Positions 9,468 through 50,814 of a stretch of 64,000 nucleotides of DNA are shown here, one piece after another; the stretch's first letter is position 1; every line of letters begins with the position of its first letter. Location of the stretch: positions 96,343 through 160,342 of the IMG/VR virus record IMGVR_UViG_3300025132_000021; one strand, 5' to 3'. This stretch comes from a virus. The notes beneath the pieces are model-generated. The model ran no database searches, was not told the DNA's origin, and worked only from the letters and a program-made list of their open reading frames with translations. A program made the position numbers and the translations under genes.

Positions 9468-9505
9468 TGTAAAGGTTTAAGTAAGTCCTACACGATAGTC
9501 TTATT

Positions 9506-9673
9506 ATGCCTACCGTAGAGTTAAGCAACGAAGATATTACGCTTCTTTTAGAAGTATTGAACCAAACCACCATTCAAGGTCGTGAAGGTGCGATTCGCTT
9601 TTTGAAAGTATATCATGCACTGGAAAACGGTCTTGAAGAATCCGAAGGAGATGAAAACCATGACGACAATTGA
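9506..9673 (+). CDS. small protein (55 aa, MPTVELSNEDITLLLEVLNQTTIQG...), not in ORF track
   Basis: TTTAAGTA at 9476 (-30); clear paralogue of the next ORF. Confidence 0.75.
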   Translation: MPTVELSNEDITLLLEVLNQTTIQGREGAIRFLKVYHALENGLEESEGDENHDDN

Positions 9674-9815
9674 ATTAGAAAATAAAGAAATTGGAATCCT
9701 ACTTCAAATCTTGAATACTACTCAAATACAAGGTGCAGAAAACATTAAAGTATTCATGGAAATCTGGGATAAACTGGTTTCAGTTTATGAACCCACTACT
9801 AACATTGAAGACTAA
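9660..9815 (+). CDS. small protein (MTTIELENKEIGILLQILNTTQIQG...)
   Basis: ORF 9615..9815; GGAGATGA SD before ATG 9660; paralogue of 9506..9673. Confidence 0.7.
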   Translation: MTTIELENKEIGILLQILNTTQIQGAENIKVFMEIWDKLVSVYEPTTNIED

Positions 9816-9847
9816 ACTTTAAGTAGTCGTGGGTAGTAATACTCACT

Positions 9848-10042
9848 ATGACTCCTGCTGACCGCACTTGGACATGGCTTTCTATGGGCTTTGCTGCTTT
9901 AGCCATGCTAACCAGTTTATTTGCTTTAGCCACCGACCCATCTTTTACCAAACAATCTGAAGTTGATTACTTAGATGAAAACCTTCCTGAAGAAGTCTTA
10001 GATGAGATGAGAGGCTTAGGAATGTCTACCTCGGACAACTAA
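9848..10042 (+). CDS. small membrane protein
   Basis: TTTAAGTA at 9818 (-30); one TM helix. Confidence 0.65.
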   Translation: MTPADRTWTWLSMGFAALAMLTSLFALATDPSFTKQSEVDYLDENLPEEVLDEMRGLGMSTSDN

Positions 10043-10080
10043 TACAAAGCATTAAGTATCAGCCACTATTATGAATAATC

Positions 10081-10287
10081 ATGTCGGAAGAGAGTCCAAT
10101 CCCTAAACGCATGACTGTCAAGAAGTTGGGTCAAAAAGTGGATGAACTACAAGAAGTCGTAGATATTATCCATAGTGATATTGGAGAACTCAAAGAACTT
10201 TTGAAGACTATGATTGAACTTCAAATTGTTAAAACTCCAGAAATTGCTGATTCCAATGCGGCTTGGGTAGACCGTATGTATTCATAG
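10081..10287 (+). CDS. small coiled-coil protein
   Basis: ATTAAGTA at 10051 (-30); heptad pattern. Confidence 0.6.
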   Translation: MSEESPIPKRMTVKKLGQKVDELQEVVDIIHSDIGELKELLKTMIELQIVKTPEIADSNAAWVDRMYS

Positions 10288-13200
10288 TTTCTCAAACAAA
10301 GTTTGTTGTTTGCCTAATTCTTTGCTTTCAAATGTTTCGGCTACCCATTTGCTCACTTGAGCATACAAGCCCGCAATATAATGATTACATCCATATTTGT
10401 CAATAAGGGTCTGCATCAGTCCATCATATTTACTAACACCACCTTCAGTCACAGTCAAAATCAAACGACCGGGACATAAAGTTTCTACTTCTTCGCCCGT
10501 GAATGGGTCAGTCTTGGTTTCCATAATAGTCCGACACTTACCACTCACAGGCACACGGCGATAACTTGCCCCACACTTAGGACATCTAACCTTTTGTTGC
10601 CCATAGGCTCTTAGATTACCTCGCATATCTCTGATAAGGTGTCTGTCTATCAATTTACTGGCTTGTTCTTTATTGTCCACAGAAGCCAACATCTCACCTA
10701 ATGCGAACTGTTCCATAGTTTTCCTTCGCATAGAATCTAAAGTATTGTAAGGATTGTTTCTTGGACCTGCTGCACAATCTTCAGTATCGTGCGTATAGCC
10801 GATTTTACCTACGGGCAATTCGCCAGCATCGGTTAAAGTTTCTACAATGGCTATGCCTTCAACTTTCAAAGCCGACTTCGGACTTGGTGGTTCATCTGCC
10901 TGAGTCAATTCATAAAACTCCACAGGATATTCCCAAACCACATCTACATTCAAGGCTTCTTTATCAATTTCAGTAGCCACAATTCTGGTTGTCAAAGTCA
11001 AAGGTGCGTCCATGCGTCCACCACGACTCTTAGGTAAAAACATACGGCTAAAGTTTATTAGTCCTTCTGCCAAGAGCAAGATACAATCAATATCTCCATC
11101 ACAATTTCGGCGTTTCGCTGCATGATAAAATGGATGTCCGTAATGACCTTTAACACCCGCTACACCAATGATACGAGCCAATACTGCCCCACTGGTATGC
11201 GGTGCAAGACCCATAATCAATTGTCCAATCAAACTTTCTTGAGGGTTATCTTCGTTGATTTCATAAAAAGGTTCAAGTTCATACATGGTTTCTAACATAT
11301 CATTAGTAAATCTCATAGCGGCGACCAAAGAGTTCACACAATTTTCAGCAACCACTACATCTTGAGGCATCAATTCAATAATCTGGTCATCTGCGACCAC
11401 AGGTTTTCCTTGACAATCTACCACATAACCTAAATCTACTGCTTGTGCTGCCGTTAGTCCGATTTCATCGGGTCTAAAATGAGTCATGGTAATATCTACC
11501 ATGTCAAAGCGAATAGTGCCATCACGGAAGGCACTCGTTCCATTTCGGTGTCTTAACACTCCTTTGAGCATAGCCTCTGGAGTTTTCTCAGCACTTCGTA
11601 GACCTTTGCTACCTTTTACTTCAGGTTCAGTGGCTTGATGAGTAGTTTCTAAACAATCTTTCCAAATCTCCTCTGTCCCCAGATGTTGTTTAATGACTCC
11701 TACAAAGTTTGTTTCCGTTGCCTCGTGCGGTGCTGTCGCATCGCCCGAACAAACACCCCGCCAAGTCTGTGTATCACAAGTTGGACACACACGGACACCT
11801 ACTGATACGCTTTCGTTCTTGCGAGCAGCATCACGAATACGGCGTTGAGAACCAGAGTTAAAACCCACAGGCCAAAGCCCATGCACAGGAGGATTCATCT
11901 CCCGATGTTTAGAACCTTCGGGCTTGCCCATTCTGGCTCCAATTCGCAAAGTTGTTCTGGGTCGGATTTCATAATCGGCCAAATCATTTAACCACTCTAT
12001 TGCGGATTCATAAATACTTAAGTTTATTTTCAAAGATTTCTCAACTTTGGCTAATAAATTAAGAACTAATAAACTTTCATCTCCAAACAGATTGCCCTCT
12101 GCGTCTATGTTAATCTGCGCTCGGTAGACCAATTCCCTAAACTTTTCAGGAACTTGAATCTTTTCTCCACACAGGCTAATCGTGATATTACTCATCAACT
12201 CATAACCTTCTTCGGCTGTCAAATCTTGCCAGCCTGTGGCGACATATTGAGGTGCAATTGGCACGCCATAAACTTTTGATTGTTCTACCGCTTCCAAGAA
12301 ATTAGCAGGTGCGCTAATCATTTCTTTCTTTAACACAGCATTGTGCCATTCTGAAACATAAGGACTCGGAGGAAGTGGATGGTTATTTTCTAAGAACTCA
12401 CCTAATGGAACTAAGAGTTCACCCAAGTCCCAAACTTTACGAATCGGCCACTCTGGTTCAGTTGGCAGAACCGTCCAATCGTCCTCTGGTTCTAATCCTG
12501 CTAAAACTTTCAACTCTGCATCGGAATTAAACCTCTGTGCCGAACCATCATTAAGTTCTACATAAGGTCCGTCAATACTTGTGCAAGGAGTTGCCACAGT
12601 TGCTTTACCCGGTCTCTCATATTTCATTTGAGTTCCACAGATAACGAAACCTGCCATAGCCATCATAGTAACTGGGTGCATAGCAGTTGTCGCCAATCCT
12701 GCTAATCGGCTTCGCCCATAGCGCAATCTTAACCCGCCGCTTTGCATGGGCAATCCAAACAAAGGTCGTCCTGCTAAGAAATCACTCATAAACTTATCAC
12801 TTGGTTTAATTTCCGTAGACCCTGTTTTTGTTTGCACAAAACTTTTTAGCCAATCCCAGCCATCAAGTTCTAACGCTTCCACATATTTTAGAATCTTTGG
12901 TGCTTTCAGAACCAGACCTTCACACATAACCAACAGCATACCTTCACGAACTTTGTTAGTTGGCACTCTGGGTAAATCACGCTGTCCTGTGACTTCACCA
13001 CCCACGCCTTCACCATCAACATAAACAGGACAATTTTGGGCAATTACTTCTAATTGAGGATTACTTGGTCTGTATTGTAGACCACGACTATATTTAGAAA
13101 CTTCTTCCTTGTATCTTTCCACTTCTGCAAAAGTAACTTTCGGAGTTCCCAAACCAAAATCACGGCGTAAGACATCTGCAATCAAAACACTAAGAGCCTG

Positions 13201-13848
13201 ACCTGTTCCACCTGCTGAACGAATTGGTCCAGCATAGTTCACGGCTAAACATTCCGTAGCGTCATCATTAGATAGAATCCGACAGGATACTACACCTTCC
13301 AGTGGGGCTACAAGGATTCCTTCAGTTAGCACCGCCAATCCTGCACAGATACCATGATACAAACAAGCAGAGATTCTCAAATGTTCACCACGAGCCTTCT
13401 GCGCTTCAGTTTCATAAGTTTCTAAAGTTTCTTTCCAATTGGCTTTTCCAATGTCATTATTGAATCCCATAACACTTCCAGTGCCTCCGCAATCATCACA
13501 CGGAACTTTCCAAGTGGGTGTTTTAGCAATTTCACCAGAACCATTACAAGGTTTGCACTTTTGTTTAACACCATACAATAAACTTTCAGCCGTTACAATA
13601 CGAGCAATATCAATTGCTACCAATTCACGGTTTCCATCGTGAATCTCTGTTAATTCACGGATTTGCTCTGCGGTGCGACGAAGATGTAAGAAATCCAGAA
13701 GTTTTTGAGTTCGGTCTGCCAAGTCGCTGGCTCTTGGGATTTCTACTGTTAAACGAGGGTCTAAACCTTTCGCACGAGCCTTATCTGCTAATTGATAAAC
13801 AACATCACACTCTTCTTCTAATCTCTGAATGTATGCTTCATAATCCAT
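10282..13848 (-). CDS. polC: DNA polymerase D large (catalytic) subunit DP2
   Basis: ARAKGLDP..VEIP, YAGPIRSAGGT, RLRYGRSRLAG, RIGARMGKPE, FRDGTIRFD, catalytic HAAKRRNCDGDxD, RGGRMDAPL, GNLRAYGQQKVRCPKC..YRRVP. Confidence 0.95.
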   Translation of the reverse strand: MDYEAYIQRLEEECDVVYQLADKARAKGLDPRLTVEIPRASDLADRTQKLLDFLHLRRTAEQIRELTEIHDGNRELVAIDIARIVTAESLLYGVKQKCKPCNGSGEIAKTPTWKVPCDDCGGTGSVMGFNNDIGKANWKETLETYETEAQKARGEHLRISACLYHGICAGLAVLTEGILVAPLEGVVSCRILSNDDATECLAVNYAGPIRSAGGTGQALSVLIADVLRRDFGLGTPKVTFAEVERYKEEVSKYSRGLQYRPSNPQLEVIAQNCPVYVDGEGVGGEVTGQRDLPRVPTNKVREGMLLVMCEGLVLKAPKILKYVEALELDGWDWLKSFVQTKTGSTEIKPSDKFMSDFLAGRPLFGLPMQSGGLRLRYGRSRLAGLATTAMHPVTMMAMAGFVICGTQMKYERPGKATVATPCTSIDGPYVELNDGSAQRFNSDAELKVLAGLEPEDDWTVLPTEPEWPIRKVWDLGELLVPLGEFLENNHPLPPSPYVSEWHNAVLKKEMISAPANFLEAVEQSKVYGVPIAPQYVATGWQDLTAEEGYELMSNITISLCGEKIQVPEKFRELVYRAQINIDAEGNLFGDESLLVLNLLAKVEKSLKINLSIYESAIEWLNDLADYEIRPRTTLRIGARMGKPEGSKHREMNPPVHGLWPVGFNSGSQRRIRDAARKNESVSVGVRVCPTCDTQTWRGVCSGDATAPHEATETNFVGVIKQHLGTEEIWKDCLETTHQATEPEVKGSKGLRSAEKTPEAMLKGVLRHRNGTSAFRDGTIRFDMVDITMTHFRPDEIGLTAAQAVDLGYVVDCQGKPVVADDQIIELMPQDVVVAENCVNSLVAAMRFTNDMLETMYELEPFYEINEDNPQESLIGQLIMGLAPHTSGAVLARIIGVAGVKGHYGHPFYHAAKRRNCDGDIDCILLLAEGLINFSRMFLPKSRGGRMDAPLTLTTRIVATEIDKEALNVDVVWEYPVEFYELTQADEPPSPKSALKVEGIAIVETLTDAGELPVGKIGYTHDTEDCAAGPRNNPYNTLDSMRRKTMEQFALGEMLASVDNKEQASKLIDRHLIRDMRGNLRAYGQQKVRCPKCGASYRRVPVSGKCRTIMETKTDPFTGEEVETLCPGRLILTVTEGGVSKYDGLMQTLIDKYGCNHYIAGLYAQVSKWVAETFESKELGKQQTLFEKL

Positions 13849-13888: not shown

Positions 13889-16597
13889 TTAAACTTGTCC
13901 GTCCATGAAAGAATATGGGCTACGGTCGTTAATAGAAACAACTTTTAGTTCACCATTCCAAACTAAAGTAGAACCATTTTCTAACTTGCGAGAAGGAATT
14001 GGTGCTAACGCCAAATCAGGGAAAGACCCTGAATCTTTAGGGAAACCTTTCTCTACATTAAAACTTTCAATTTGCATCTCTGAACCATCTGGGAAAATCA
14101 GATAAATAAAATCTTCAGAATAAGTGTTGCCTAAATCTACGGCCACTACCATATCTTCGGATTTCCAATCCTCCATTCCTACATCATCAGCAGCCATTTC
14201 TATCCAGTTTAACAAATACTCGGCTAATTGAAAACTAATGTTTTCTAATCCATCGTTATTCTTTTCTTCAAAAGAAAGAATTGGTTGTCTAAGCATAGTA
14301 ATATCGCCATCATTATATCCTAAATAACTAAAACTAAATTGACGAGGTGAGCGAGCATTAGCATCTCTAATAAAACCAAAGTTTTTACTACGATAGATAC
14401 GGGCTAAGTTTCGGTGAAATACTAAGTTTTCATCTGACATCCAGAGCCAAAACAAATCAGCATCACTACTTACTGAACTTTCAGCCCCTTTTGCTAATGC
14501 CTTGTAGCAAGCACACTTTGGTTCAATTGCCGAGCAACTCATTGGCTCAGGTGCTTTCATGCAAACACAAGGATTGGATTTAGTAGCACCACAGCAACAC
14601 GAAGTTTTGCTAAGTTTTTCTTCAGCATCACGACGGCGTTTGAGCGACGGTGTTCCGTCCAGAGGAGTCCAGTTCACAGGTTCTCCAAACTCCATTGGTC
14701 TTTGAATAGGTGCAGAACCTTCTTCAGATGCAAAAGGATTTAATTTTTTAGCAGCAGTTTGAGCCTTATCTTTAATTTTTTGAGTTGCTGGCATCTGTTC
14801 TACGGTAGACCTTACTCCACCATATTTGCGGTTGCACCACTCTTCTTGTCTTTCTCTTTCCTCTACCAATGCCGACTCATCTTTAGTATTCGCAAAGACA
14901 GATGCTTTAATTGCATTCCCGAACTCTTGATAAAATGCTGCTTTTTCATTATGTGTCAGACCTGAGATTTCGGGGGCAACATCTTCTACCAACATATTAA
15001 CAATCATTGAGCAATTTATGTTCTTTTGAGGAGTTGAATACAGGGTGTAGTTATCATCACCAGCCCGACAATAAATACCCATAGCCCTCGCAATAGGCCA
15101 TGCCAATCTTTTAATTGCGCCTGATGGAATCTCAAACCGTTGCTTAACATAATCTTTACCTTCTTTCTTATCCACCATTGTTGCTTGTTTAGTAAAACTA
15201 CTAACCATTTCTGCAACACCCATCACTGAAGGTTCACTTGTTGCACTGGCGGTTGGAATCTTTGACATAGGTTCTCCACGAGCCAAGGCCGCTACCACAT
15301 CTAATGGAGATTGCACCACACCAGTTCCACTGACAGTAGGACCAGTAGTGCCTGTTTCTAATTGGGCTAACTCTTCCATCATAATTGATGACAAATCTCT
15401 GTAAAACTTCTGACTTTTATTTCCATAAGGCGGTGCAGCCACGACATAACCATCTTTGGCTAATCTTTTTAATCCACCAATTAAAGCGGCTCGTAATGGT
15501 TCAGTTCTTGATTTTGCCCCATCAACTTCTCCCTTAACATAATCTGCTTGAAAACTTTGTTCAGCACGCATTTCTGGAGGCTTATAGGTGCGACCCAACA
15601 AATCATAGATTTCTTCTTCAGTTGCCCCGCCGAGATACTCGTTGGTATCACGGTCAAACAATCCGTATTCATTAAGTTTCAAACCTTTGCGCTTGGCTGC
15701 CGAGCGCATACCAATGTTATATCCAGAAGGTCCTGTAAAATAAAGTAAGGCTGCGCCGATACCAGTAGGTGTGCTAACTTTAATATCTACTTTAACACCA
15801 TCAATAACTAATTGAGTTTTCTTTTCACCCAACCAATTATATTTCTCATAGTTTCCTTCTAAGTCGGCTACTATTTCTGGCAAAGTAATACCTTCTTTAA
15901 GAATAACTACTACATCAAGGTCGCCCGGGTCTTCCCGACCACGACGATAACTTCCACAAACTTCTACAAAGTCTGCATAAGGTTCTAACATATCTGAAAC
16001 TTTATTGGCTAAGAGTTCTGCTTCTGCACGAGTCATACGCTCTGATTCATCTCGGTCTTCTGCCCCAAACTTTTCAACTAATTGTTTCATAATTTCTTCT
16101 TCACTAATCAATCCTAATCTAACCATAGATTCCAACTGCAACAAAGTTTCTTGCATCTGGGCTTCTTCAATCATCTTTTGATACATCACAGCACGCTCGG
16201 CGTAACCTTTTGGAACTTTACCTCTGACCACGGCATTAAAAGTTTCAATTTCGTCCACATCAACTTCTTCCATAACATACAAAATACGATAAGCAGGTTC
16301 GTCGTCTAAACTTTCTTCTTGGAGAATGTAGGAAACTTGGTCTTCCGCTTCGCCACGAACACCAATGAAAACTTTGTAAGGTAAATCTGCTTTAGTAGAC
16401 ACGGCTTCTAAACTCACGAACTCATCAGCAGGCAAAAGTTCTTGAACACGATATTCCGCATCAAAGTCCATTAGATATTTAGAATTACGAAACATTTGTT
16501 GAGCAAATTGATAAGGCACTAAAACATACCTTTGATTATCTCTGGGGTCAGAAACAATAGTTCCCATAGGAGATACAGAAACAAAATTAAGTTGCAT
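13889..16597 (-). CDS. mosaic polyprotein containing a family X DNA polymerase core (approx. 15566..16036) and a Cys-rich module
   Basis: PolX motifs GSYRRG..GDLDVV, KVDIK, LLYFTG, GLKLNEYGLF, TEEEIY..LG..PPEMR; flanking modules unassigned. Confidence 0.85.
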   Translation of the reverse strand: MQLNFVSVSPMGTIVSDPRDNQRYVLVPYQFAQQMFRNSKYLMDFDAEYRVQELLPADEFVSLEAVSTKADLPYKVFIGVRGEAEDQVSYILQEESLDDEPAYRILYVMEEVDVDEIETFNAVVRGKVPKGYAERAVMYQKMIEEAQMQETLLQLESMVRLGLISEEEIMKQLVEKFGAEDRDESERMTRAEAELLANKVSDMLEPYADFVEVCGSYRRGREDPGDLDVVVILKEGITLPEIVADLEGNYEKYNWLGEKKTQLVIDGVKVDIKVSTPTGIGAALLYFTGPSGYNIGMRSAAKRKGLKLNEYGLFDRDTNEYLGGATEEEIYDLLGRTYKPPEMRAEQSFQADYVKGEVDGAKSRTEPLRAALIGGLKRLAKDGYVVAAPPYGNKSQKFYRDLSSIMMEELAQLETGTTGPTVSGTGVVQSPLDVVAALARGEPMSKIPTASATSEPSVMGVAEMVSSFTKQATMVDKKEGKDYVKQRFEIPSGAIKRLAWPIARAMGIYCRAGDDNYTLYSTPQKNINCSMIVNMLVEDVAPEISGLTHNEKAAFYQEFGNAIKASVFANTKDESALVEERERQEEWCNRKYGGVRSTVEQMPATQKIKDKAQTAAKKLNPFASEEGSAPIQRPMEFGEPVNWTPLDGTPSLKRRRDAEEKLSKTSCCCGATKSNPCVCMKAPEPMSCSAIEPKCACYKALAKGAESSVSSDADLFWLWMSDENLVFHRNLARIYRSKNFGFIRDANARSPRQFSFSYLGYNDGDITMLRQPILSFEEKNNDGLENISFQLAEYLLNWIEMAADDVGMEDWKSEDMVVAVDLGNTYSEDFIYLIFPDGSEMQIESFNVEKGFPKDSGSFPDLALAPIPSRKLENGSTLVWNGELKVVSINDRSPYSFMDGQV

Positions 16598-16623: not shown

Positions 16624-18009
16624 TTAAAGATATGGATAAGGAGTAGCACTCCAAACCTCTATGGTTTCCGCACCATATTCTCCAGACATCAATTCATAAC
16701 CAACAAACTTCCAGATTTCAGCCCATGAGCCTCCGCAGGAATTACACCTTACTTCTTGTAAGCCGTTTTCTAAAGAACCCTCGTAGCCAATATCGTCTGC
16801 ACCACACCAAGGACAGTGCATCAATTCTGCCATTTCCATGAAAGTTTCAGCATTCATAGCCTTGTCTATCTCCCAATCTCCATCATTATTCTCTTCATCA
16901 AGATAATTACGGGATACTCCAAGTTCATACACAGGTTCTTTATCCATGACACAAAGTTCATTTTCTTGCCAGAAAAAACTGATGTTATAGGCAATTGTAG
17001 AAGCCCAATCTACGGCTTCCCACGGAATCCAAGCAGTTAATACGATACGGTCAAAATCTTTTCCTTCTTCGCCTTTCATGTGGTCTATACCCTCATGTCC
17101 GAACAATGCCCCTGCGTAAAACTTACTCTGCCACAACCAAGAAGTAATCTTATCTCCATAAACTCCATATTGGTCTTGCTTTCTATTTTCCCAATTGCCT
17201 AATGAATCTACATTAACTGGTGTGCCTACGGGAACATAAAGAACTCTCCATGCTTGCATCATTATTCCATGGTCGTCATCAGAATACATCCAAGTTCCCT
17301 TTTCAAATCTTTCAAGCCAAATATCAAACATCCTCTCAAAGTATTCATCTTTAGTGGTATCTTCGCCAAGTTCCGAACCATCAGGCAAGTCAAACCCTTC
17401 CTCATAAGCCCCCAATCCTCCTCCAGCCATATTATGTTCTGCCCAATGTTTAATATCTTCTTGAGCAGGTGAATACCAAATCCGTTTTATTTCATTTATG
17501 ATATAATCTGTGCAAGCAAAGTTTTCTTCACTTGATTCTGCATCCAATCTACGGGTCTCATTGTTTTTGGGAAATAAACTGCTGCCCCAAAACTTTTTGC
17601 CAGTGCGCTTGGCCTTACGAACTACCATTGGAGTTCCTGTGCTATCACGAGGCACACGGTTTAGATAACCAGACTTGACTAAGTTCTCTAACTCATAAAC
17701 ACGGTTTAACAAATTGCGTCGCCAGTTTTCTACTCGGTGAACTCTGGTCGTTCCAGCAACTTTCACTCCATCTACCCAGTATTGCACTCGGATAGCATCA
17801 CGACCTTTCGCCCGACTGGTCTGCCCAGTCACGCTGGAATAAACTCGGATTTCGCCCTCACCCAAAGGACGGGTGAACACTCTTTCTTTGACAACTCGGA
17901 TTGCCCCACTGGGATATTTACTGGACCGTTCTTCTATGGAAAGTTCCCTAAAACTCAAGGCTTCCATAAAATCTTGCATTTGAGCCACGCTAATATCAAC
18001 ATAACTCAT
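16624..18009 (-). CDS. mosaic multi-domain protein (topoisomerase Zn-ribbon-like module, possible ART-like module, C-terminal Zn ribbon)
   Basis: TTTAAGTA at 18039 (-30); PMVVRK..GKKFWGSSLFP; CPWCG...CNSCG. Confidence 0.55.
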   Translation of the reverse strand: MSYVDISVAQMQDFMEALSFRELSIEERSSKYPSGAIRVVKERVFTRPLGEGEIRVYSSVTGQTSRAKGRDAIRVQYWVDGVKVAGTTRVHRVENWRRNLLNRVYELENLVKSGYLNRVPRDSTGTPMVVRKAKRTGKKFWGSSLFPKNNETRRLDAESSEENFACTDYIINEIKRIWYSPAQEDIKHWAEHNMAGGGLGAYEEGFDLPDGSELGEDTTKDEYFERMFDIWLERFEKGTWMYSDDDHGIMMQAWRVLYVPVGTPVNVDSLGNWENRKQDQYGVYGDKITSWLWQSKFYAGALFGHEGIDHMKGEEGKDFDRIVLTAWIPWEAVDWASTIAYNISFFWQENELCVMDKEPVYELGVSRNYLDEENNDGDWEIDKAMNAETFMEMAELMHCPWCGADDIGYEGSLENGLQEVRCNSCGGSWAEIWKFVGYELMSGEYGAETIEVWSATPYPYL

Positions 18010-18071
18010 AGATTATCTCAAGTCGTGCGACTACTTAAAGATTAAGTATCAAGGACTCGCAGCCCTCATCC

Positions 18072-18331
18072 CATCGGCTTCGCCTCAAGTGTCTACGACA
18101 CAGGGGGCAACCTATCCCTCTGTTGCTACGCAACATTCACCCCATCCGGGGAGAGGAGATTCCTCTTAGGGTATAGTCCACTTACTCGTTGAGGTCGGCC
18201 ATGCGGTCGCTCAAAAGCAATAGTGCTGATGCCCAAAGTCCGACAAAGATACCAAGGTTCTCGTCGTGAGCAAAGTAAATAGCAATACTACCCAAGATTG
18301 ATACAAGGCTTGCACCTAATCCCAACTTTTT
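18072..18331 (+). ncRNA. candidate structured non-coding RNA
   Basis: ATTAAGTA box at 18041 with no start codon at +30; CATCGGC(18072) pairs with GCTGATG(18225); GCCTCAA pairs with TTGAGGT; at least 5 internal hairpins; ends at a T-run; homologous to 39356..39455 (-). Confidence 0.55.
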
Positions 18332-18336
18332 CCAGT

Positions 18337-18759
18337 TCATGCCAATGCCTCCTGAAGTCGTGCCAACAAGTCTGCCTTCTTACCAGTGATAGGAAGGTTA
18401 AGTTCTTTGAGTCGGTCTTTAAGTTGAGCGACAGTCAGAGCCTTGAGTTCTTCAATTTCTTCAGTAGCCGACTCAACAGCAGAGTCCACCGCAGCATCTA
18501 CTACATCTTCAATGCTTTCTCCTGCTTCCAATGCTTCTTCTACATCGTCTACCACATCTTCTGCAACATCTTCTGCGGCAGAAGCAATAGTTTCAACGAC
18601 ACTATCAAGTTCTACATCAATGCCTGTGGCATCTTCAATAGCGTCTTCAATTTTGTCAGCAATTTGTTCAATCGTCTTTCCTCGGTTTTTGAGCCACCAG
18701 CCAGCGACAGCCGCCGTAGCGATGCCCAGACCAGTTAGCAATACGGTGTTTGGTTCCAT
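18337..18759 (-). CDS. membrane-anchored acidic protein with C-terminal SAP-like domain
   Basis: N-terminal TM; LTVAQLKDRLKELNLPITGKKADLLARL is a SAP signature; TTTAAGTA at 18789 (-30). Confidence 0.8.
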   Translation of the reverse strand: MEPNTVLLTGLGIATAAVAGWWLKNRGKTIEQIADKIEDAIEDATGIDVELDSVVETIASAAEDVAEDVVDDVEEALEAGESIEDVVDAAVDSAVESATEEIEELKALTVAQLKDRLKELNLPITGKKADLLARLQEALA

Positions 18760-18784: not shown

Positions 18785-19735
18785 TTAAAGTTGTTCATCA
18801 TTGAGATTGTGTTTAACCTCTATGACTTCTGGCTTAGTGGGATACTGCATGGCCGTATCTTCATTAAGGAACATCACTTGAAATTGTCCCTTTGAGGTTT
18901 CTTCGGTTAATTCACTCTTGGATAAATAAATAGGTGGTCGGAACATTAAGTTATCATCAACACCTGTGGATACATCACTCATCATCTTGGCTTCGTATCT
19001 TTGCAGGATTTGTTCTAAGCGAGTTAAGTCCATATCTCCAGATGCCGAAATACGACCTGTGCTGGCAGCGTGAGCCGAAACTTTTGAATTGCCTAAGAAC
19101 TTGTTGGCTAAATCAGCATCAGAAATAATTAAACTTTCCAACTTTTGTCTAAGTATTGTCATTACTTGCGGTTTCCAAAACTCTGCTACTTCAAAAGGAC
19201 TCAAGGTGCTGTTCCAGTTTTCAAAGTCCACTTGCCACCAAATATCCATGTATTCAGCATCGGCTTCAGCAGGTGTAGCCTTTGGTCCCATTTGTTCTCC
19301 ACGACCAATAGTAGTTCCACCCAATCCCAGAATGCCTCCATAATATACTAATGAATAGTTTTCAGTTTTGACAAAGTTTGTTTGCCACTTACCACCAGTT
19401 CTGGAGATAACATATTCTTCAACTCCACTACCCGGAAAAGTTTCATAAGTTTGTCTGCTCATGGTTTTCACAGTGGTTTCTAATTCTTTTGCAGCCGCAG
19501 TTGCCGACTTTCCTTCATTCATTAGGTCAATCATTTCAAATCTTTTCTGTTCAGGTGTGCGAACAATTTCAAATCTGCGGTTCTTGATAATCCATTTAAT
19601 TCCTTTGGCAGCCAAATAACCTTTCAAAGTTTTCGGAGTAGTGCGTGCCAGTTTAGTGGCTCTGGTCATACTAATGCCACGACTCAATAACAAATCCAGA
19701 GCAATTAAGGCTCTTTGTTGGGTCAATGGATTCAT
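18785..19735 (-). CDS. hypothetical protein with N-terminal tandem HTH-like repeats
   Basis: GISMTRATKLARTTPKTL and GKSATAAAKELETTVKTM; GTTAAGTA at 19765 gives start 19735. Confidence 0.55.
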   Translation of the reverse strand: MNPLTQQRALIALDLLLSRGISMTRATKLARTTPKTLKGYLAAKGIKWIIKNRRFEIVRTPEQKRFEMIDLMNEGKSATAAAKELETTVKTMSRQTYETFPGSGVEEYVISRTGGKWQTNFVKTENYSLVYYGGILGLGGTTIGRGEQMGPKATPAEADAEYMDIWWQVDFENWNSTLSPFEVAEFWKPQVMTILRQKLESLIISDADLANKFLGNSKVSAHAASTGRISASGDMDLTRLEQILQRYEAKMMSDVSTGVDDNLMFRPPIYLSKSELTEETSKGQFQVMFLNEDTAMQYPTKPEVIEVKHNLNDEQL

Positions 19736-19760
19736 ATTATCACTATCTCCTATCAACTAC

Positions 19761-21485
19761 TTAACTGTTGTCATCGTCCCACATATCAGGTGGAAGCACT
19801 TGAATGAATGTGGCTTTCTGTATGTTTTTCTCTGTGCATTCCAACCAACCTTGGTTAATCATGTATTCCCATTCTTTGTCGCTAAATGGAACTCTGTCCC
19901 GCATTTCTTTGACATCTGCAAACGCTCTTTCTAAAGTTTGTGCATAGTCATTTAAGCGTTGGTGAACTTCAGCAATTCTTTTAGATGCCCCTGACTTAAT
20001 ATACTTCCAATCTCCATCTTGAATCAATGTATTCAAAGATTCAGTAAAGATGCGCTCGGCTTTTTCAATACTCATGCGAGAAACTACTCTTTCACCATTT
20101 AGTCGGGCAAACCCTTTGCACAGGTTCACAAACTCTTGAAACTTTCGGAAATCACGACTGGTTCTTTTGTCTAAGAAAGCAGCAGAGAACTCTGGCATCG
20201 CCTTAATACGATTCATGGCTTCACGAATGTCCATACGATGTGGAGTAATATCGGGTTCTTGTTCACTTACATACCTTAGATACTGACGGAAGAAACTTCT
20301 CCACATACTCAAGTTGTTGTTAAACTCTTTCTTGAGATACTTACCATTCATAGCATCAAGGATTTTATCTTCAATAGCATACTCGGTATCACCATCAGTC
20401 AAGGTCATACGAGCGAAAATCAATGTCAAACGACTAAGAATCTGTGGTGTGTATTCTCCAAAAGCACCTAACATACCCATTTTAGCAGGTCTACCATCTT
20501 TGGTTTCTGTTTTGGGGTCCCAATCACGAGGAGGATTACCTAAGAACATAAAATTAACTTTACCTTCTCTTTTGGTGTCCACTTGTCCTTTTTGCATTGT
20601 GAAACTACCATTAGCCATCACATTCATTAGTTCACCGAATACCTCTTGATTCCATGTTTGAAACTCGGACACAGCGATGCGTTCATTATTCATCTTTGGT
20701 ATCAATCCCAACTCAATTGAGTTGAGGTCTTCGCCACTCATGGCTCCGAATAACCCCGGAATTGTGCAAAGTTTTCCACTGGAGGCTACGCCACACGGCA
20801 CTAAAGGTTCAATCATCTGTTCAATCAAATGGTCTTTACCCTCGCCCATACTGCTGATAATACCCATGTGTAGCATATCAGTTTTCTTTTGAGGACTTAG
20901 GCAATACAACATAACTCCATATTTGATAGGAGGGTCTGCATAAAGTTTAGACCATAAAGTATCATCACGAACCATCAATTCTAATGGGCTGAAAGCAGGA
21001 CCGTGTTCATCACACAAAGCCATAAACTCCGTGAACTGTTCATCAGTCATCTGGCTACTTTGCATTTCAACATTCTTTTGAATGTCAGTGACTACAAAGA
21101 CCTTATCACGACCCATCATTTGATAAGCACCGCTTACCATGAGTTGTGAACCATCACGAATACTTTCAGTTAGCATCATCATTGTTTGACGCAGCCGTTC
21201 TGAATCCATACCACCGGGTCTGGAATCTAAACTACCATTATGTGCCATGCACTCTACGGCGTAAGTTCCATCACTGATGAAGAAACGAATAGCCGACTGG
21301 TCAGGATTAGGACTTTTAGAATTAAGAGGAACTTCTTCCATCTTCAGACAAATGCCTGAACCTATTTCTAAATGCTTCTGTGAAATCTTAGCGGCATAGA
21401 TGCGCTCAATGTTGGCATCGGTGCTATGATAGGTGGATGTTGCAGACTCTACGAACTCATGTATTTCGCTCGGAATGTCTAACAT
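19761..21485 (-). CDS. divergent MCM-like AAA+ helicase
   Basis: Walker A-like ISSMGEGKD, GKLCTIPGLFG (MCM GKxxSxxGL), AVSEF at Walker B, FLGNP, ILSRL arginine finger, RKFQEFVNLCKGFARL sensor 2. Confidence 0.7.
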   Translation of the reverse strand: MLDIPSEIHEFVESATSTYHSTDANIERIYAAKISQKHLEIGSGICLKMEEVPLNSKSPNPDQSAIRFFISDGTYAVECMAHNGSLDSRPGGMDSERLRQTMMMLTESIRDGSQLMVSGAYQMMGRDKVFVVTDIQKNVEMQSSQMTDEQFTEFMALCDEHGPAFSPLELMVRDDTLWSKLYADPPIKYGVMLYCLSPQKKTDMLHMGIISSMGEGKDHLIEQMIEPLVPCGVASSGKLCTIPGLFGAMSGEDLNSIELGLIPKMNNERIAVSEFQTWNQEVFGELMNVMANGSFTMQKGQVDTKREGKVNFMFLGNPPRDWDPKTETKDGRPAKMGMLGAFGEYTPQILSRLTLIFARMTLTDGDTEYAIEDKILDAMNGKYLKKEFNNNLSMWRSFFRQYLRYVSEQEPDITPHRMDIREAMNRIKAMPEFSAAFLDKRTSRDFRKFQEFVNLCKGFARLNGERVVSRMSIEKAERIFTESLNTLIQDGDWKYIKSGASKRIAEVHQRLNDYAQTLERAFADVKEMRDRVPFSDKEWEYMINQGWLECTEKNIQKATFIQVLPPDMWDDDNS

Positions 21486-34204: not shown

Positions 34205-34265
34205 GTTATAACTAAGGCGAAGCACCTACATAAACATTAAGTATCAGCGCAACCCAGAATCTATT

Positions 34266-34355
34266 ATGAACACTCCAAAAGTCTTGAATTGGATTAGGTT
34301 TCCTTATGATTACCACGAAATGCAGTTTTTCACATTCGCAGAATTGTTTGGTTAA
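34266..34355 (+). CDS. 29-aa micropeptide MNTPKVLNWIRFPYDYHEMQFFTFAELFG (LNW motif)
   Basis: ATTAAGTA at 34236 exactly -30; KVLNWxxFP matches the end of 50815..51339. Confidence 0.6.
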   Translation: MNTPKVLNWIRFPYDYHEMQFFTFAELFG

Positions 34356-34387
34356 ACTTTAAGTATCAAGTCCTCGTATGAAATACC

Positions 34388-35134
34388 ATGCTAATCATGG
34401 GTTATGCTAACATTCCCAGAGAAGATAAAGTTTCAGACGGCGGTGATGACGCATGGTTTGTCACTAATTCTATTGTTAATGCGATGGGTGTTGCTGATGG
34501 CGTAGGTTCTTGGAGAAGAATGGGTATCAATGCAGGCAATTGCGCTCGGTGTGTAATGCGAGTTGCTAAAGATTATTTTATTAACGGTAGAGAAGTTGTT
34601 TCAGAAAGTTTAGAAGAAGCCAATAGTTCTTGCAGAGAACAAGGGTCCACCACAGCCTTAGTAGCCTACTTAGATGATGCCCAATTACTAAACATTAGTC
34701 AAATCGGAGATTCCAATTTAATTATTATTCGTGATGGTGAAGTAAAGTTTCAAACATCTTCTGGAACTCACTCCCGAAATGTTCCGTTTTCTATGGGTCT
34801 CGGTTCTAAAGATAAGTTTAACAAAGTTTTAACTGATTACACATTTTATTGTAAAACTGGAGACATTATTATCATGGGAACTGATGGTCTTTGGGATAAT
34901 CTTTATCCAGTCCAAGTCATAGATATTCTCAAGGCTACTAATCTTAAAAGTCCCACTCGTATGGCTAAAGTTTTATGCAATATCGCTTACAACATGAGTG
35001 AGGACGAAGAAATCTGGAGTCCCTTTGCTCAAGATGCTTATGAAGCAGGAGATATTTATGATACTTTAGATTTGTCAATTTGGGAAGGTGGTAAGCCTGA
35101 TGATATTACTATCGTTGTGGCTATCGTTGAATAA
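34388..35134 (+). CDS. PP2C-family (PTC7-like) protein phosphatase
   Basis: GDDA, GVADGVGSW, GSTT, IGDS, TDGLWDN, GGKPDDIT; TTTAAGTA at 34358 (-30). Confidence 0.9.
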   Translation: MLIMGYANIPREDKVSDGGDDAWFVTNSIVNAMGVADGVGSWRRMGINAGNCARCVMRVAKDYFINGREVVSESLEEANSSCREQGSTTALVAYLDDAQLLNISQIGDSNLIIIRDGEVKFQTSSGTHSRNVPFSMGLGSKDKFNKVLTDYTFYCKTGDIIIMGTDGLWDNLYPVQVIDILKATNLKSPTRMAKVLCNIAYNMSEDEEIWSPFAQDAYEAGDIYDTLDLSIWEGGKPDDITIVVAIVE

Positions 35135-38446: not shown

Positions 38447-38743
38447 GTTTCCTCAAGACTCCTACACCATCAATCTACTTAAACCTTTGGTTAAAGTTCA
38501 GAGGGTGAACCTGCACCTTCCCAACAAGATTTTTGACAATACCAATCGTGAAATGGATTATGATTGCGATTGATGATGAGTTCTGTTGAATCGGCCTTAC
38601 GCCCACAAAAAGCACATTTCATTAGAGCCTCCCTCCAAAAACATTACAGCCAACACAACAACCATTCTGTTTGAAACAAGAAAGTTCTCGGTAATCCCAA
38701 AGAACCTTTCCACAAAGTTGGCAGGAAACTTCATCACTCATTA

Positions 38744-38974
38744 TTACCACCACTTCTCTGTTTGCTTGTATGCGTGCTTTACAACTTTAGCAGGGTCTTC
38801 CCATTTCTCCAGAGGAATCTTTATTTCCGATTTACAGTTTTCATTCTTACAGATGACTTCAATAAATCCATACTCATGTTTCTTCTTATTTCTTGTGGGG
38901 TGAAATATAACTACGGCTTGTTCTTGATGACAAATGATACAATGTTTGTTCTCTTCTGCGTGTATGGTGTCCAT
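38744..38974 (-). CDS. small Zn-binding protein
   Basis: CIIC...CKNENC; GTTAAGTA upstream. Confidence 0.55.
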   Translation of the reverse strand: MDTIHAEENKHCIICHQEQAVVIFHPTRNKKKHEYGFIEVICKNENCKSEIKIPLEKWEDPAKVVKHAYKQTEKWW

Positions 38975-39339
38975 ACATAATAGTATGGTGCATCTAACTA
39001 CTTAACCATTCGCTTCGCTCTTTCGCTGTTGCGTTTCATGTTGGCAGTAGTGTTAATACCATATCGCCAAATATCAATCAATGCTAAAGTTAGCAACACT
39101 CCAAAACTCGCTAAGACAATTTCCCAGACCATAGATTAACTATGACCGACGACTGTTATGAACTTTACATAGCGTCCATCAATTTCTTGAGGTGTTTCCT
39201 CAAAACTTCAATTGGTTCTTTGAGATATTCCTTTCTATCCCACGCTTGCACAACATTTAGTGCAGCCAGCAGCACTTCCTCATTATGATAGTTCCCATCC
39301 ATCACTTAGTCCTAAATCATACTGTGATATAAACTTTCA

Positions 39340-39472
39340 GGTTGAACTTGACCAGATAAGGGTATTTCCCTCCCCGGATAAGGGAGGCGCATAGCGACGG
39401 GAAAAGGCTGTTCCTGTAACGGAAGCGAAGCGACGACCCTACCGAGGGCTACGAAAGTTTTCTCGGTAGATG
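39340..39472 (-). ncRNA. structured element 3' of the HNH gene, homologous to 18057..18168
   Basis: CTACCGAG/CTCGGTAG stem, then a hairpin series sharing TCG.AGCCCTC, GCTTCGC, ACAGG, GCTAYGC and ATCCGGGGAG with the 18.1-kb element. Confidence 0.5.
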
Positions 39473-39473
39473 A

Positions 39474-40349
39474 CTACTGGATTCCCGGTTTGTCTAATGG
39501 TGGTGCTTCTAAATAATTCAACAAACTTTTAGCCCAAACTTCAGGACAATCATGCTTCTTAATCAAACCTTCCATCGTATTACAATGGCTACATAGCACA
39601 CCACGAATCTTACCTGTCTCATGGTCATGGTCAATACAAGCAATCTTAGGATTACTTGCCCCGCCGTTTCTGTGTTCTATATCAGTTCCACAGATTTGAC
39701 AATTATGAACAGTCATAATATGGTTCTTTAACACATGAGCCGTAGTAGAATACTTGCCTTTCTTCATCACACAGGCTCCACATACCATTACGCTTTCATC
39801 TAAGTCAAAAGTCATAGCAATACCTTTTTGCCCAGAGATTCCACAGCACCAACAAGTTTCACCTTTGTATTGTTCGTGGCTAACGCAAGTGCTACAAAGT
39901 TGATAAGTGCTATTCGTGATACGACGAAACTCTCCACAACTTTGGCATTCTGCCTCGGTTCTGGTTCTGATTCTATCTGCTTTTGGCACAGTGATTAAAT
40001 CTGTATCCTTAAAAGTTGGCGGTCGCTCAACCCATGCTTCACGGTATTCCAAAAATCTTTCCCATGCCCAACCTTTACATTTTCTGGACCAAACTTTATG
40101 GCAGCCATTACAAAGCATTTTATTTTCTTTGATATGAAAGGCTTCGTCTGCTTGACAAACTTTTCCGCAACTATCACAAGTTTCTTGATTATATCTCCAT
40201 TTATTAGCACAGCCCGCACACAATTGATATTTACCTTGCCAAATAGCAGCCAGTTCATTACAACCACCACGACAAATGCCTAAGCCTTTGTTTTTGATTC
40301 GTTGTTCAGGAGAAACTTCTGGTAACGGACAGTTTCGCCATGCTACCAT
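39474..40349 (-). CDS. Endonuclease VII-type HNH nuclease with multiple N-terminal CxxC zinc fingers
   Basis: CQICG..IDHDHETGKIRGVLCSHCN; repeated YQLCxxC..ETCxxCG units; TTTAAGTA at 40379 gives start 40349. Confidence 0.85.
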   Translation of the reverse strand: MVAWRNCPLPEVSPEQRIKNKGLGICRGGCNELAAIWQGKYQLCAGCANKWRYNQETCDSCGKVCQADEAFHIKENKMLCNGCHKVWSRKCKGWAWERFLEYREAWVERPPTFKDTDLITVPKADRIRTRTEAECQSCGEFRRITNSTYQLCSTCVSHEQYKGETCWCCGISGQKGIAMTFDLDESVMVCGACVMKKGKYSTTAHVLKNHIMTVHNCQICGTDIEHRNGGASNPKIACIDHDHETGKIRGVLCSHCNTMEGLIKKHDCPEVWAKSLLNYLEAPPLDKPGIQ

Positions 40350-40366
40350 ACTACTTCTAAAGTGTA

Positions 40367-40597
40367 TCACTTACTTAAACTATCTTCAGGCGCACAGCCT
40401 TCGCAACAATAAAGATAACCACCTTGCATAATATCAAAGTCCTCATGGCAGACCCGACAAACTCGGTGTCGCCATCTAAGAGCATAACAAACAACCAAAC
40501 GGGCTTCTTCAAGGCTTACTGCGGCCTCGTTTTGAATTAAACCACTCTCTACGGTCAAGCCTTTTACTTGACACCATGATTCCAGCATAGTAGGCAT
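40367..40597 (-). CDS. small Cys-rich protein
   Basis: CRVC...YCCEGC. Confidence 0.5.
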   Translation of the reverse strand: MPTMLESWCQVKGLTVESGLIQNEAAVSLEEARLVVCYALRWRHRVCRVCHEDFDIMQGGYLYCCEGCAPEDSLSK

Positions 40598-49799: not shown

Positions 49800-50753
49800 T
49801 TAAAGATTCCACATAGGCATTCCTCTTTGCCACACTTCAGTAGCAGGGTGAATCCCCATTTCAGGAAAATCTGGACGCTCGTATTCGTTTTTGGTTGTCC
49901 ATGGGTGAATAGTAGTTATGATTTCCCAAAGACTTACTTCAAAGTTTTCTTCTACCAGATTTTCTAAGGCTGTTCTTTCTTCTGCATCTAAAGGCCAAAC
50001 CACTTGTCCAGTTTTTGGATGAATACTATATGGACAACGAATCACACCTTGTCTTTGAATCGGTGCTAAGTCTAAGTAGTTAATAGGAGTTGAGGCTGCT
50101 TCTTCATAAATAGTTTCAGTAACCGTGCGATAAAGTTTTGCTTGGTAGCGCAAAGGGTCATTCTGCGTCGCAAAGGTTTTCTTCCAATGAGGACTAATTT
50201 TAGAAACCAAACTTTCGGCTTCTTCAGCGTGCAACCAAACATGGAAACCTTTGGAACCTGAAAACACAATTTGTGGGTTGAGACCGTGTTTAGATTCCAA
50301 AAACTTTGCGATGTCATTAGCCACGCCGAAAGCAGCACCCGGATGATTAGGATAATCTACATCCCAAACTAAATCTTTTCCCTGATAAATTGTCTCAAAG
50401 TTTATTTGTAGTTCCTTACAGCCTTCTCGTGTCAAGGTTTTCTTCCAAAAGTTCCTAAAATCTTTCATAGCATCTTTGTTAAAACCTGAAACGCCTCGCA
50501 CTCGCAACGGAGGAGGTAATCTTAACATTGTCCACTCTACACGATTTGTTCCCACGAACAAACTTATTCTACGCTCTGGGTGTCCCACAAGTTTCAAAGT
50601 TTTGCCCACCGAATCTGATTTGTGAAATCTTTGCTGTCTGAAACCAAAATCTTCTGCACGGTCGTCGGAACGATGAATCGTAAGTTTTACTTCTCTGGGT
50701 CTGGCAAAGTTGGCAATTGCCCCTTGAACTGCTTGTGTATCTAACCAACCCAT
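49800..50753 (-). CDS. archaeo-eukaryotic primase catalytic subunit (PriS-like)
   Basis: DLVWDVD, VFSGSKGFHVW, D..IRCPYSIHPKTG; TTTATGTA at 50783 (-30). Confidence 0.85.
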   Translation of the reverse strand: MGWLDTQAVQGAIANFARPREVKLTIHRSDDRAEDFGFRQQRFHKSDSVGKTLKLVGHPERRISLFVGTNRVEWTMLRLPPPLRVRGVSGFNKDAMKDFRNFWKKTLTREGCKELQINFETIYQGKDLVWDVDYPNHPGAAFGVANDIAKFLESKHGLNPQIVFSGSKGFHVWLHAEEAESLVSKISPHWKKTFATQNDPLRYQAKLYRTVTETIYEEAASTPINYLDLAPIQRQGVIRCPYSIHPKTGQVVWPLDAEERTALENLVEENFEVSLWEIITTIHPWTTKNEYERPDFPEMGIHPATEVWQRGMPMWNL

Positions 50754-50814
50754 AGTATCTTATCAGCGTATCACTTACATAAACATTAAGTATCAGGGTC
50801 TATTTATGATAACT

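Follow-up and report, generated by a model that had tools for sequence, protein, structure and literature searches.

A conserved, multi-copy cluster of short hairpins as a candidate new family of small structured RNAs in large marine archaeal viruses

The viral DNA analysed here, a 64,000-nucleotide stretch (the window), makes up the final 64 kb of a record that is 160,342 bp long and carries inverted terminal repeats. Its hairpin cluster at positions 18050-18181 (plus strand) is real: it is a structured element that is conserved and occurs in multiple copies. Comparative sequence analysis leans, with reserve, towards regarding it as a member of a conserved family of small structured RNAs of ~110-130 nt in a clade of large (~160 kb) viruses of marine archaea, where each genome has two to four diverged copies. 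The family most likely represents new, apparently undescribed small viral RNAs. To our knowledge, descriptions of non-coding RNAs from archaeal viruses are very few, and the literature searches made here turned up neither this element nor a small RNA from any virus of marine group II archaea. Under the favoured reading, the RNA would be a row of five or six short hairpins whose stems are free to change in sequence as long as pairing persists, with two apical loops (CARCCUW and CYAUCC), a 5' motif and a 3' tail as its constant parts.

All genes around the first copy of the element in the window (copy 1) lie on the minus strand. From higher to lower coordinates, the locus contains the following features:

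19761-21485, minus strand: MCM-like helicase.
18785-19756, minus strand: 323-aa protein.
18337-18759, minus strand: 140-aa SAP-domain protein, with the SAP DNA-binding domain at its end.
18182-18340, minus strand: ORF of 52 aa for a hydrophobic, predicted two-helix membrane microprotein; not part of the element.
18050-18181, plus strand: copy 1 of the structured element (full covariance-model match).
18042-18048, plus strand: TTAAGTA(TCA) promoter box pointing into the element, present in the window and in the 99% relative L001 only.
18031-18038, minus strand: promoter box TTTAAGTA of the 461-aa gene, conserved in all copy-1 relatives.
16624-18009, minus strand: 461-aa protein, with its ATG at 18009.
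13889-16597, minus strand: PolX-containing 902-aa protein.
10282-13848, minus strand: large subunit DP2 of PolD.

The initial annotation had placed a structured RNA of ~290 nt in a ~260-nt gap, closed by two long-range stems and ending in a run of T. These boundaries have to be abandoned, as 18182-18340 is taken up by the 52-aa ORF and the true non-coding gap is 18010-18181 only (172 nt), with the core of the element at 18050-18181. The proposed closing stems (CATCGGC/GCTGATG and GCCTCAA/TTGAGGT) have their 3' halves within this ORF and are not conserved, each losing at least one pair in 90%-identical relatives and being absent where the neighbouring gene differs, and the T-run (18328-18332) corresponds to Lys-Lys codons of the same ORF and is likewise not conserved. 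The 52-aa ORF overlaps the SAP-domain gene by ATGA, from which translational coupling is predicted, and the pair is conserved, the 52-aa product being 75-96% and the SAP protein 39-88% identical in relatives. As a property of the family, a type I toxin-antitoxin arrangement, in which a plus-strand RNA would be antisense to the 52-aa gene, was discarded: the other copies lack such a neighbour.

Within the core, the five short hairpins of the initial annotation are found where it had placed them, together with GGC-TTC-GCC. Comparative data show that two of them are better drawn in another register, namely AGGGG/UCCCU over CAGGGGG/CCCTCTG and UC.CC/GG.GA over CCCC/GGGG. The parts of copy 1, all on the plus strand, are as follows:

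18056-18067: conserved 5' motif CUCGCAGCCCUC, family consensus UCGYAGCMCUC.
18076-18084: hairpin H0, GGC-UUC-GCC, whose GCUNCGC core is retained in nearly all copies.
18089-18101: hairpin H1, GUGUC-UAC-GACAC, which covaries (UUUCC/GGAAA in L012).
18102-18119: hairpin P_A, AGGGG/UCCCU, with the near-invariant loop GCAACCUA, family consensus CARCCUW.
18121-18135: hairpin H2, UGUUGC-UAC-GCAACA, with both-sided changes at six of six pairs.
18137-18152: hairpin P_B, UC.CC/GG.GA, with the loop CCAUCC and then GG, near-invariant, family consensus CYAUCCGG.
18153-18165: hairpin H4, GAGGA-GAU-UCCUC, which covaries.
18166-18181: conserved tail UUAGGGUAUAGUCCAC, family consensus GUAUnGUYCAA.

The general architecture is thus one of five to six hairpins, H1 being missing from some lineages, with two near-invariant C/U-rich loops, CARCCUW and CYAUCC-GG. 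No U-run follows the tail at 18166-18181, nor does any conserved U-run, terminator or other 3' end signal follow it in the family. Further pairings noticed by eye, between the tail and the 5' motif (ACUC with GRGU) and between CCUCU and AGAGG or GGACU and AGUCC, were discarded, as they are not consistently retained. The G+C content of copy 1 is 57% versus 41% for the genome (53-57% across elements), and a G+C content above the genome average is usual for RNA genes.

Relatives of the locus were collected by an alignment-based scan with homologues of the 323-aa protein, which yielded 82 related metagenomic loci; such a scan was needed, since single-protein scans of IMG/VR with the SAP, 323-aa and 461-aa proteins returned no matches. 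The element was located by nhmmer downstream of the 323-aa gene in many loci and adjoins that gene in 38 of the 82, at protein identities down to ~61%. Alignment by MAFFT alone misplaced the variable hairpins, and RNAalifold applied to that alignment recovered three helices only. This misalignment was solved by iterating a covariance model, which was built from the six closest sequences with a six-helix structure, searched against all loci and rebuilt twice.

The resulting comparison reveals strong covariation among homologues, the very signal that the initial annotation had proposed to look for. Across three model-made alignments, 96-98% (96.5-97.9%) of paired cells can pair versus 79-84% in shuffles, figures inflated by the fitting of the alignments to the structure and by the relatedness of the sequences; 13-18 pairs have changed on both sides, none of 500 shuffles reaches the observed pairing values, and sliding the partners reduces pairing to 48-58%. 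Even with such generous numbers, the covariation signal lies far beyond the controls. Stems may differ fully between lineages and nevertheless remain complementary, with the segments between them nearly invariant: one hairpin appears as GTGTC/GACAC, TTTCC/GGAAA, GTAGCC/GGCTAC or TCAACC/GGTTGA, and another as TGTTGC/GCAACA, TGGGC/GCCCA, TGTGGC/GCCACA or GAAGCC/GGCTTC. Conserved secondary structure with compensatory changes, a feature expected of a free-standing small RNA gene, is therefore present.

The same comparison indicates which strand folds, and here the earlier proposal of a structured element folding on the plus strand is borne out. The paired columns hold 29 G.U pairs, at nine positions and in several lineages, against 3 A.C (24 against 3 in another count); since an A.C cell is a G.U pair on the other strand, this asymmetry identifies the plus strand of the window as the folding strand of copy 1. 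Folding of 18010-18181 gave a z-score of -3.26 for the plus strand, with none of 200 shuffles as good, and of -1.35 for the minus strand, and the RNAalifold consensus energy is -16.6 kcal/mol in the sense and -12.8 kcal/mol in the antisense direction. In single-sequence folding, the purine-rich antisense strand has the lower energy in 23 of 26 sequences. A 33-aa ORF at 18035-18136 (minus strand) was rejected, since indels in the loops break its frame; because these indels are not multiples of three, the element is not a small ORF.

The locus is not the single free-standing one that had been supposed, as covariance models find exactly two copies, in opposite orientation, in the whole 160,342-bp genome. 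The second copy is the following:

39342-39461, minus strand: copy 2 of the element, found by covariance model and inverted relative to copy 1.

Copy 2 scores 18.7 bits (E ~0.001-0.002) under the first model, which was built from copy-1 sequences only, and matches copy 1 in its 5' motif and tail, in the GCUUCGC hairpin and in the two conserved loops. It begins 12 nt past the stop of an endonuclease VII gene (39474-40370, minus strand), and a TTTATAT box lies ~10 nt beyond its end. Four copies are present in a related record of 166 kb that has terminal repeats, and one of them, behind a homologous gene, is the positional counterpart of copy 2; the copy-2 lineage also lies behind the endonuclease VII gene in four further relatives, in which the neighbouring proteins range from 91% down to 49% identity. 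Within a genome, copies can diverge widely (52.8 versus 123.7 bits under model R2). In a more distant 150-kb relative (G002), the covariance models find no copy. The element outlasts changes in its surroundings, being retained where a 195-aa gene has been inserted on one side (L002 and L009) and where a reversed 184-aa gene has been inserted on the other (L025). Beyond these viruses, a loose DNA pattern scan of IMG/VR gave chance hits only, and a tighter pattern recovered from IMG/VR only the already known 166-kb relative. The tighter pattern was also run against 596 Gb of cellular genomes, where, among the matches listed, 80 checked loci scored no higher than 14-17 bits and all belong to high-G+C bacterial MAGs, so these loci were treated as chance.

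Several other features were noted near copy 2 and its counterparts. The 298-aa product of the gene at 39474-40370 (minus strand) is a recombination endonuclease VII (PF02945); marine metagenomes contain ~100 homologues, and the name 'ribosomal protein S14' given to one member in a public source is apparently a mis-annotation. The region downstream of copy 2 (38447-39341, minus strand) holds a series of very small ORFs preceded by TTTATAT and TTAAGTA boxes; several of these ORFs have paired Cys-x-x-Cys motifs, and the first starts ATGGATGGG. In L341, a 93-nt tRNA-Ile(TAT) gene, long enough for an intron, lies between the endonuclease VII gene and the element (positions 2411-2503 of that locus, plus strand).

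In agreement with the initial annotation, which could match the locus to no known RNA family, a search of the whole window against Rfam 15 at gathering thresholds returned no match. When E values up to 10 were admitted for both copies, four chance-level hits appeared, with 12-17 bits where the cut-offs are 42-75; the two at copy 1 fall outside the core, and of the two at copy 2 one is internal to the element and the other touches its 3' tail. ARAGORN detected no tRNA or tmRNA in the window, and the element itself is not tRNA-shaped, having neither a tRNA-like closing stem nor a CCA end. As for guide RNAs, the conserved columns contain neither box C (RUGAUGA) nor box D (CUGA) of archaeal C/D-box RNAs, an ACA after H1, as an H/ACA guide would carry, is seen by eye in some lineages only, and snoRNA models score 12-17 bits. 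Resemblances to the sarcin-ricin loop (CGAGAGGA), to 5S rRNA (CCCAUCC) and to helix 45 of 16S rRNA were dropped as lineage-specific or unsupported by Rfam.

If the element acts as an RNA it would have to be transcribed, and promoter boxes offer candidate starts. TTAAGTA occurs 35 times in the genome versus 11 expected, and 19 of these 35 boxes are followed, exactly 29 nt downstream, by an ATG that opens an ORF, a fixed distance that fits leaderless or near-leaderless mRNAs. The box that the initial annotation had seen at 18041, pointing into the gap, is a genuine copy of this promoter type (18042-18048) and, as had been stated, lacks a matching ATG, none being found at +18 to +40; by the 29-nt rule, transcription from it is predicted to start at ~18071. 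It closely resembles the promoters of the plus-strand genes at 34388 and 50806 and adjoins the oppositely oriented box of the 461-aa gene (18038..18032), the two lying back to back. It is, however, peculiar to the lineage of the window and no family feature, other family members having only the TATA box of a neighbouring gene or a position just behind an ORF. In most relatives, the only TATA-like box upstream of the element is TACTTAAA, the box of the 461-aa gene read on the plus strand. The 5' end of copy-1 members abuts the TATA box of this divergent gene, and the 5' motif at 18056-18067 lies at the start expected from the shared box (spacing counted by eye): the conserved A of UCGYAGCC is, by our own count, 25-30 nt from the start of the reversed TATA, approximately where a divergent start is expected. 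In L343, where a reversed gene has been inserted upstream, a TATTTAAGTATA box faces the element and places position 31 on the conserved A; the sense-strand boxes of the window (18042) and of L343 arose separately. No TATA-like box precedes copy 2 of the window. In L341, the element comes immediately after the tRNA-Ile gene, which has the same orientation, and the T5 run behind it, an arrangement seen in one lineage only. The L343 box, the adjacency to this tRNA gene and the high G+C content together favour an RNA product. Several relatives carry a palindrome (such as GTTGTTC...GAACAAC in L027) between the shared TATA box and the expected start, which an RNA begun there could not contain, so that a simple small-RNA gene leaves the palindromes unexplained. 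Taken as a model, copy 1 in the window genome would be transcribed antisense to its neighbours from its own late-type TTAAGTA box, and copy 2, directly behind an ORF on the coding strand, could come from the transcript of that gene.

The same promoter signals were observed elsewhere in the window. An apparently empty stretch of 800 nt at a switch of gene orientation and GC skew (9468-10281, plus strand) contains three ORFs (55, 64 and 68 aa) that all begin precisely 29 nt past a TTAAGTA box and are probably real leaderless microprotein genes. A further TTAAGTA box at 59030-59036 (plus strand), with no ATG within 18-40 nt, lies in a ~1.4-kb stretch (58687-60087) devoid of ORFs of at least 100 aa and may mark a non-coding transcript. 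Back-to-back promoter pairs built like 18031-18048 were also seen at 50753-50806 and 34225-34388: a TTAAGTATCA box is linked to a TTTATGTA(G/A)GTG box of the opposite strand, and both boxes drive protein genes.

Other explanations of the conserved structure have to be weighed against a free small RNA. One is that it acts in cis within longer viral transcripts, as a module of the 3'-UTR or intergenic region, by fixing or shielding the 3' ends of mRNAs, by marking a processing site or by insulating the next promoter. This appears fairly unlikely, even though its position is suggestive: every copy occupies the space from the stop of one gene to the TATA box of the next, copies of other lineages lie on the coding strand, mostly starting 0-12 nt past the stop codon, such co-directional copies end 0-50 nt before the TATA box, copy 2 of the window has no promoter of its own in front, and no terminator follows the tail. 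Copy 1 is difficult to accommodate in this scheme, as its members run against the direction of both flanking genes in every relative, which would put the wrong strand into an operon transcript, and wobble pairs still favour the sense strand. Moreover, the upstream gene points away from the element in L343 and L025, the T5 run of L341 separates it from the upstream tRNA, and the invariant loops point to specific recognition and not to a mere stable 3' end.

A signal at the DNA level, acting as folded ssDNA or as a cruciform and serving as an origin, a priming site or a loading site for the viral MCM/PolD machinery, is quite improbable. Copy 1 is embedded in a replication module (MCM-like helicase, SAP protein, PolX and PolD DP2) and copy 2 adjoins the endonuclease VII gene; such a signal would need neither promoter nor terminator, would be free in its orientation relative to genes and could occur in several copies per genome. 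The C-GNA-G loop is a very stable form of DNA, and the ssDNA alternative of the initial annotation rested on such loops, which do exist: minus-strand hairpin loops are mostly C-GTA-G, C-GAA-G or C-AAA-G (C-UAC-G, C-UUC-G and C-UUU-G on the folding strand), and GNA three-base loops on the opposite strand of nearly all hairpins are an unusual choice for an RNA. In the ssDNA initiation signals of phages G4 and phiX174, as in the d(GCGAAGC) mini-hairpin, the GNA loops belong to the active strand itself. The element resembles the phage signals in being a cluster of short hairpins with C-GNA-G loops and the mini-hairpin in having an exact GCGAAGC on its minus strand (18084..18078), but the wobble pairs (29 versus 3) disfavour this alternative by supporting the plus strand, which lacks GNA loops, and a cruciform would require pairing on both strands. 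Other differences from G4 and phiX174 are the carrier, a large virus with double-stranded DNA, the invariant loops and the occurrence in several copies. It also differs from an archaeal replication origin, with a G+C content of 57%, the opposite of an unwinding region, with each motif present once and with no repeated origin-recognition boxes or other repeated binding sites. The turning point of the cumulative GC skew lies at genome positions ~97-105 kb and coincides with neither copy (114.4 and 135.7 kb), and in one relative the element stands beside a same-strand tRNA gene. Finally, a miniature selfish repeat of MITE or REP type, spread through intergenic spaces with no function of its own, is barely credible: the element is indeed multi-copy, found in either orientation and always intergenic, but the same pairs and loops are kept in highly diverged copies within a genome, positions are fixed across relatives whose neighbouring proteins are only 39-49% identical, and no complementary ends are visible by eye.

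For the small RNA that remains the favoured reading, we infer that the conserved C/U-rich loops would be the part that contacts a partner, either a protein or an RNA rich in purines, for example a Shine-Dalgarno-like leader. The conserved stretches that are unpaired or half-paired are CCUAUCCCUCU and AUUCACCCCAUCC in the window and UCUCCCC in another lineage. These stretches show complementarity to the leaders of GGUGA, GGAG and GGGG type found ahead of many viral genes that are not leaderless, and AUUCACCCC likewise to leaders of GGUGA or GGAG type. Pairing of the loops with ribosome-binding sequences is put forward as a proposal. Regulatory RNAs that pair with ribosome-binding sites through C-rich loops include RNAIII and the Rsa RNAs of Staphylococcus aureus (UCCC loops) and sRNA41 of Methanosarcina mazei. 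The element is like these in its multiple hairpins with conserved C/U-rich segments, its status as a small RNA being predicted, and unlike them in that there is no sequence relationship, that part of each C-run is paired inside its own hairpin and that a search of the viral genome revealed no long complementary target. A more specific idea, to be regarded as very doubtful, is that the family might serve as decoys or masks for ribosome-binding sequences, the C/U-rich stretches soaking up the Shine-Dalgarno-type leaders of host and early viral mRNAs. Such stretches would then imitate parts of the 3' end of 16S rRNA, UCACC in one lineage and CUCC in another.

If the decoy idea were true, translation would shift towards leaderless late mRNAs from TTTAAGTA promoters, the type that would drive copy 1 in the window genome. 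The family is carried by an abundant, uncultured group of ocean viruses with archaeal-type replication machinery, and the covariance model provides a direct handle for finding it in metatranscriptomes, with the two invariant loops offering clear sites for mutation or for use as bait.
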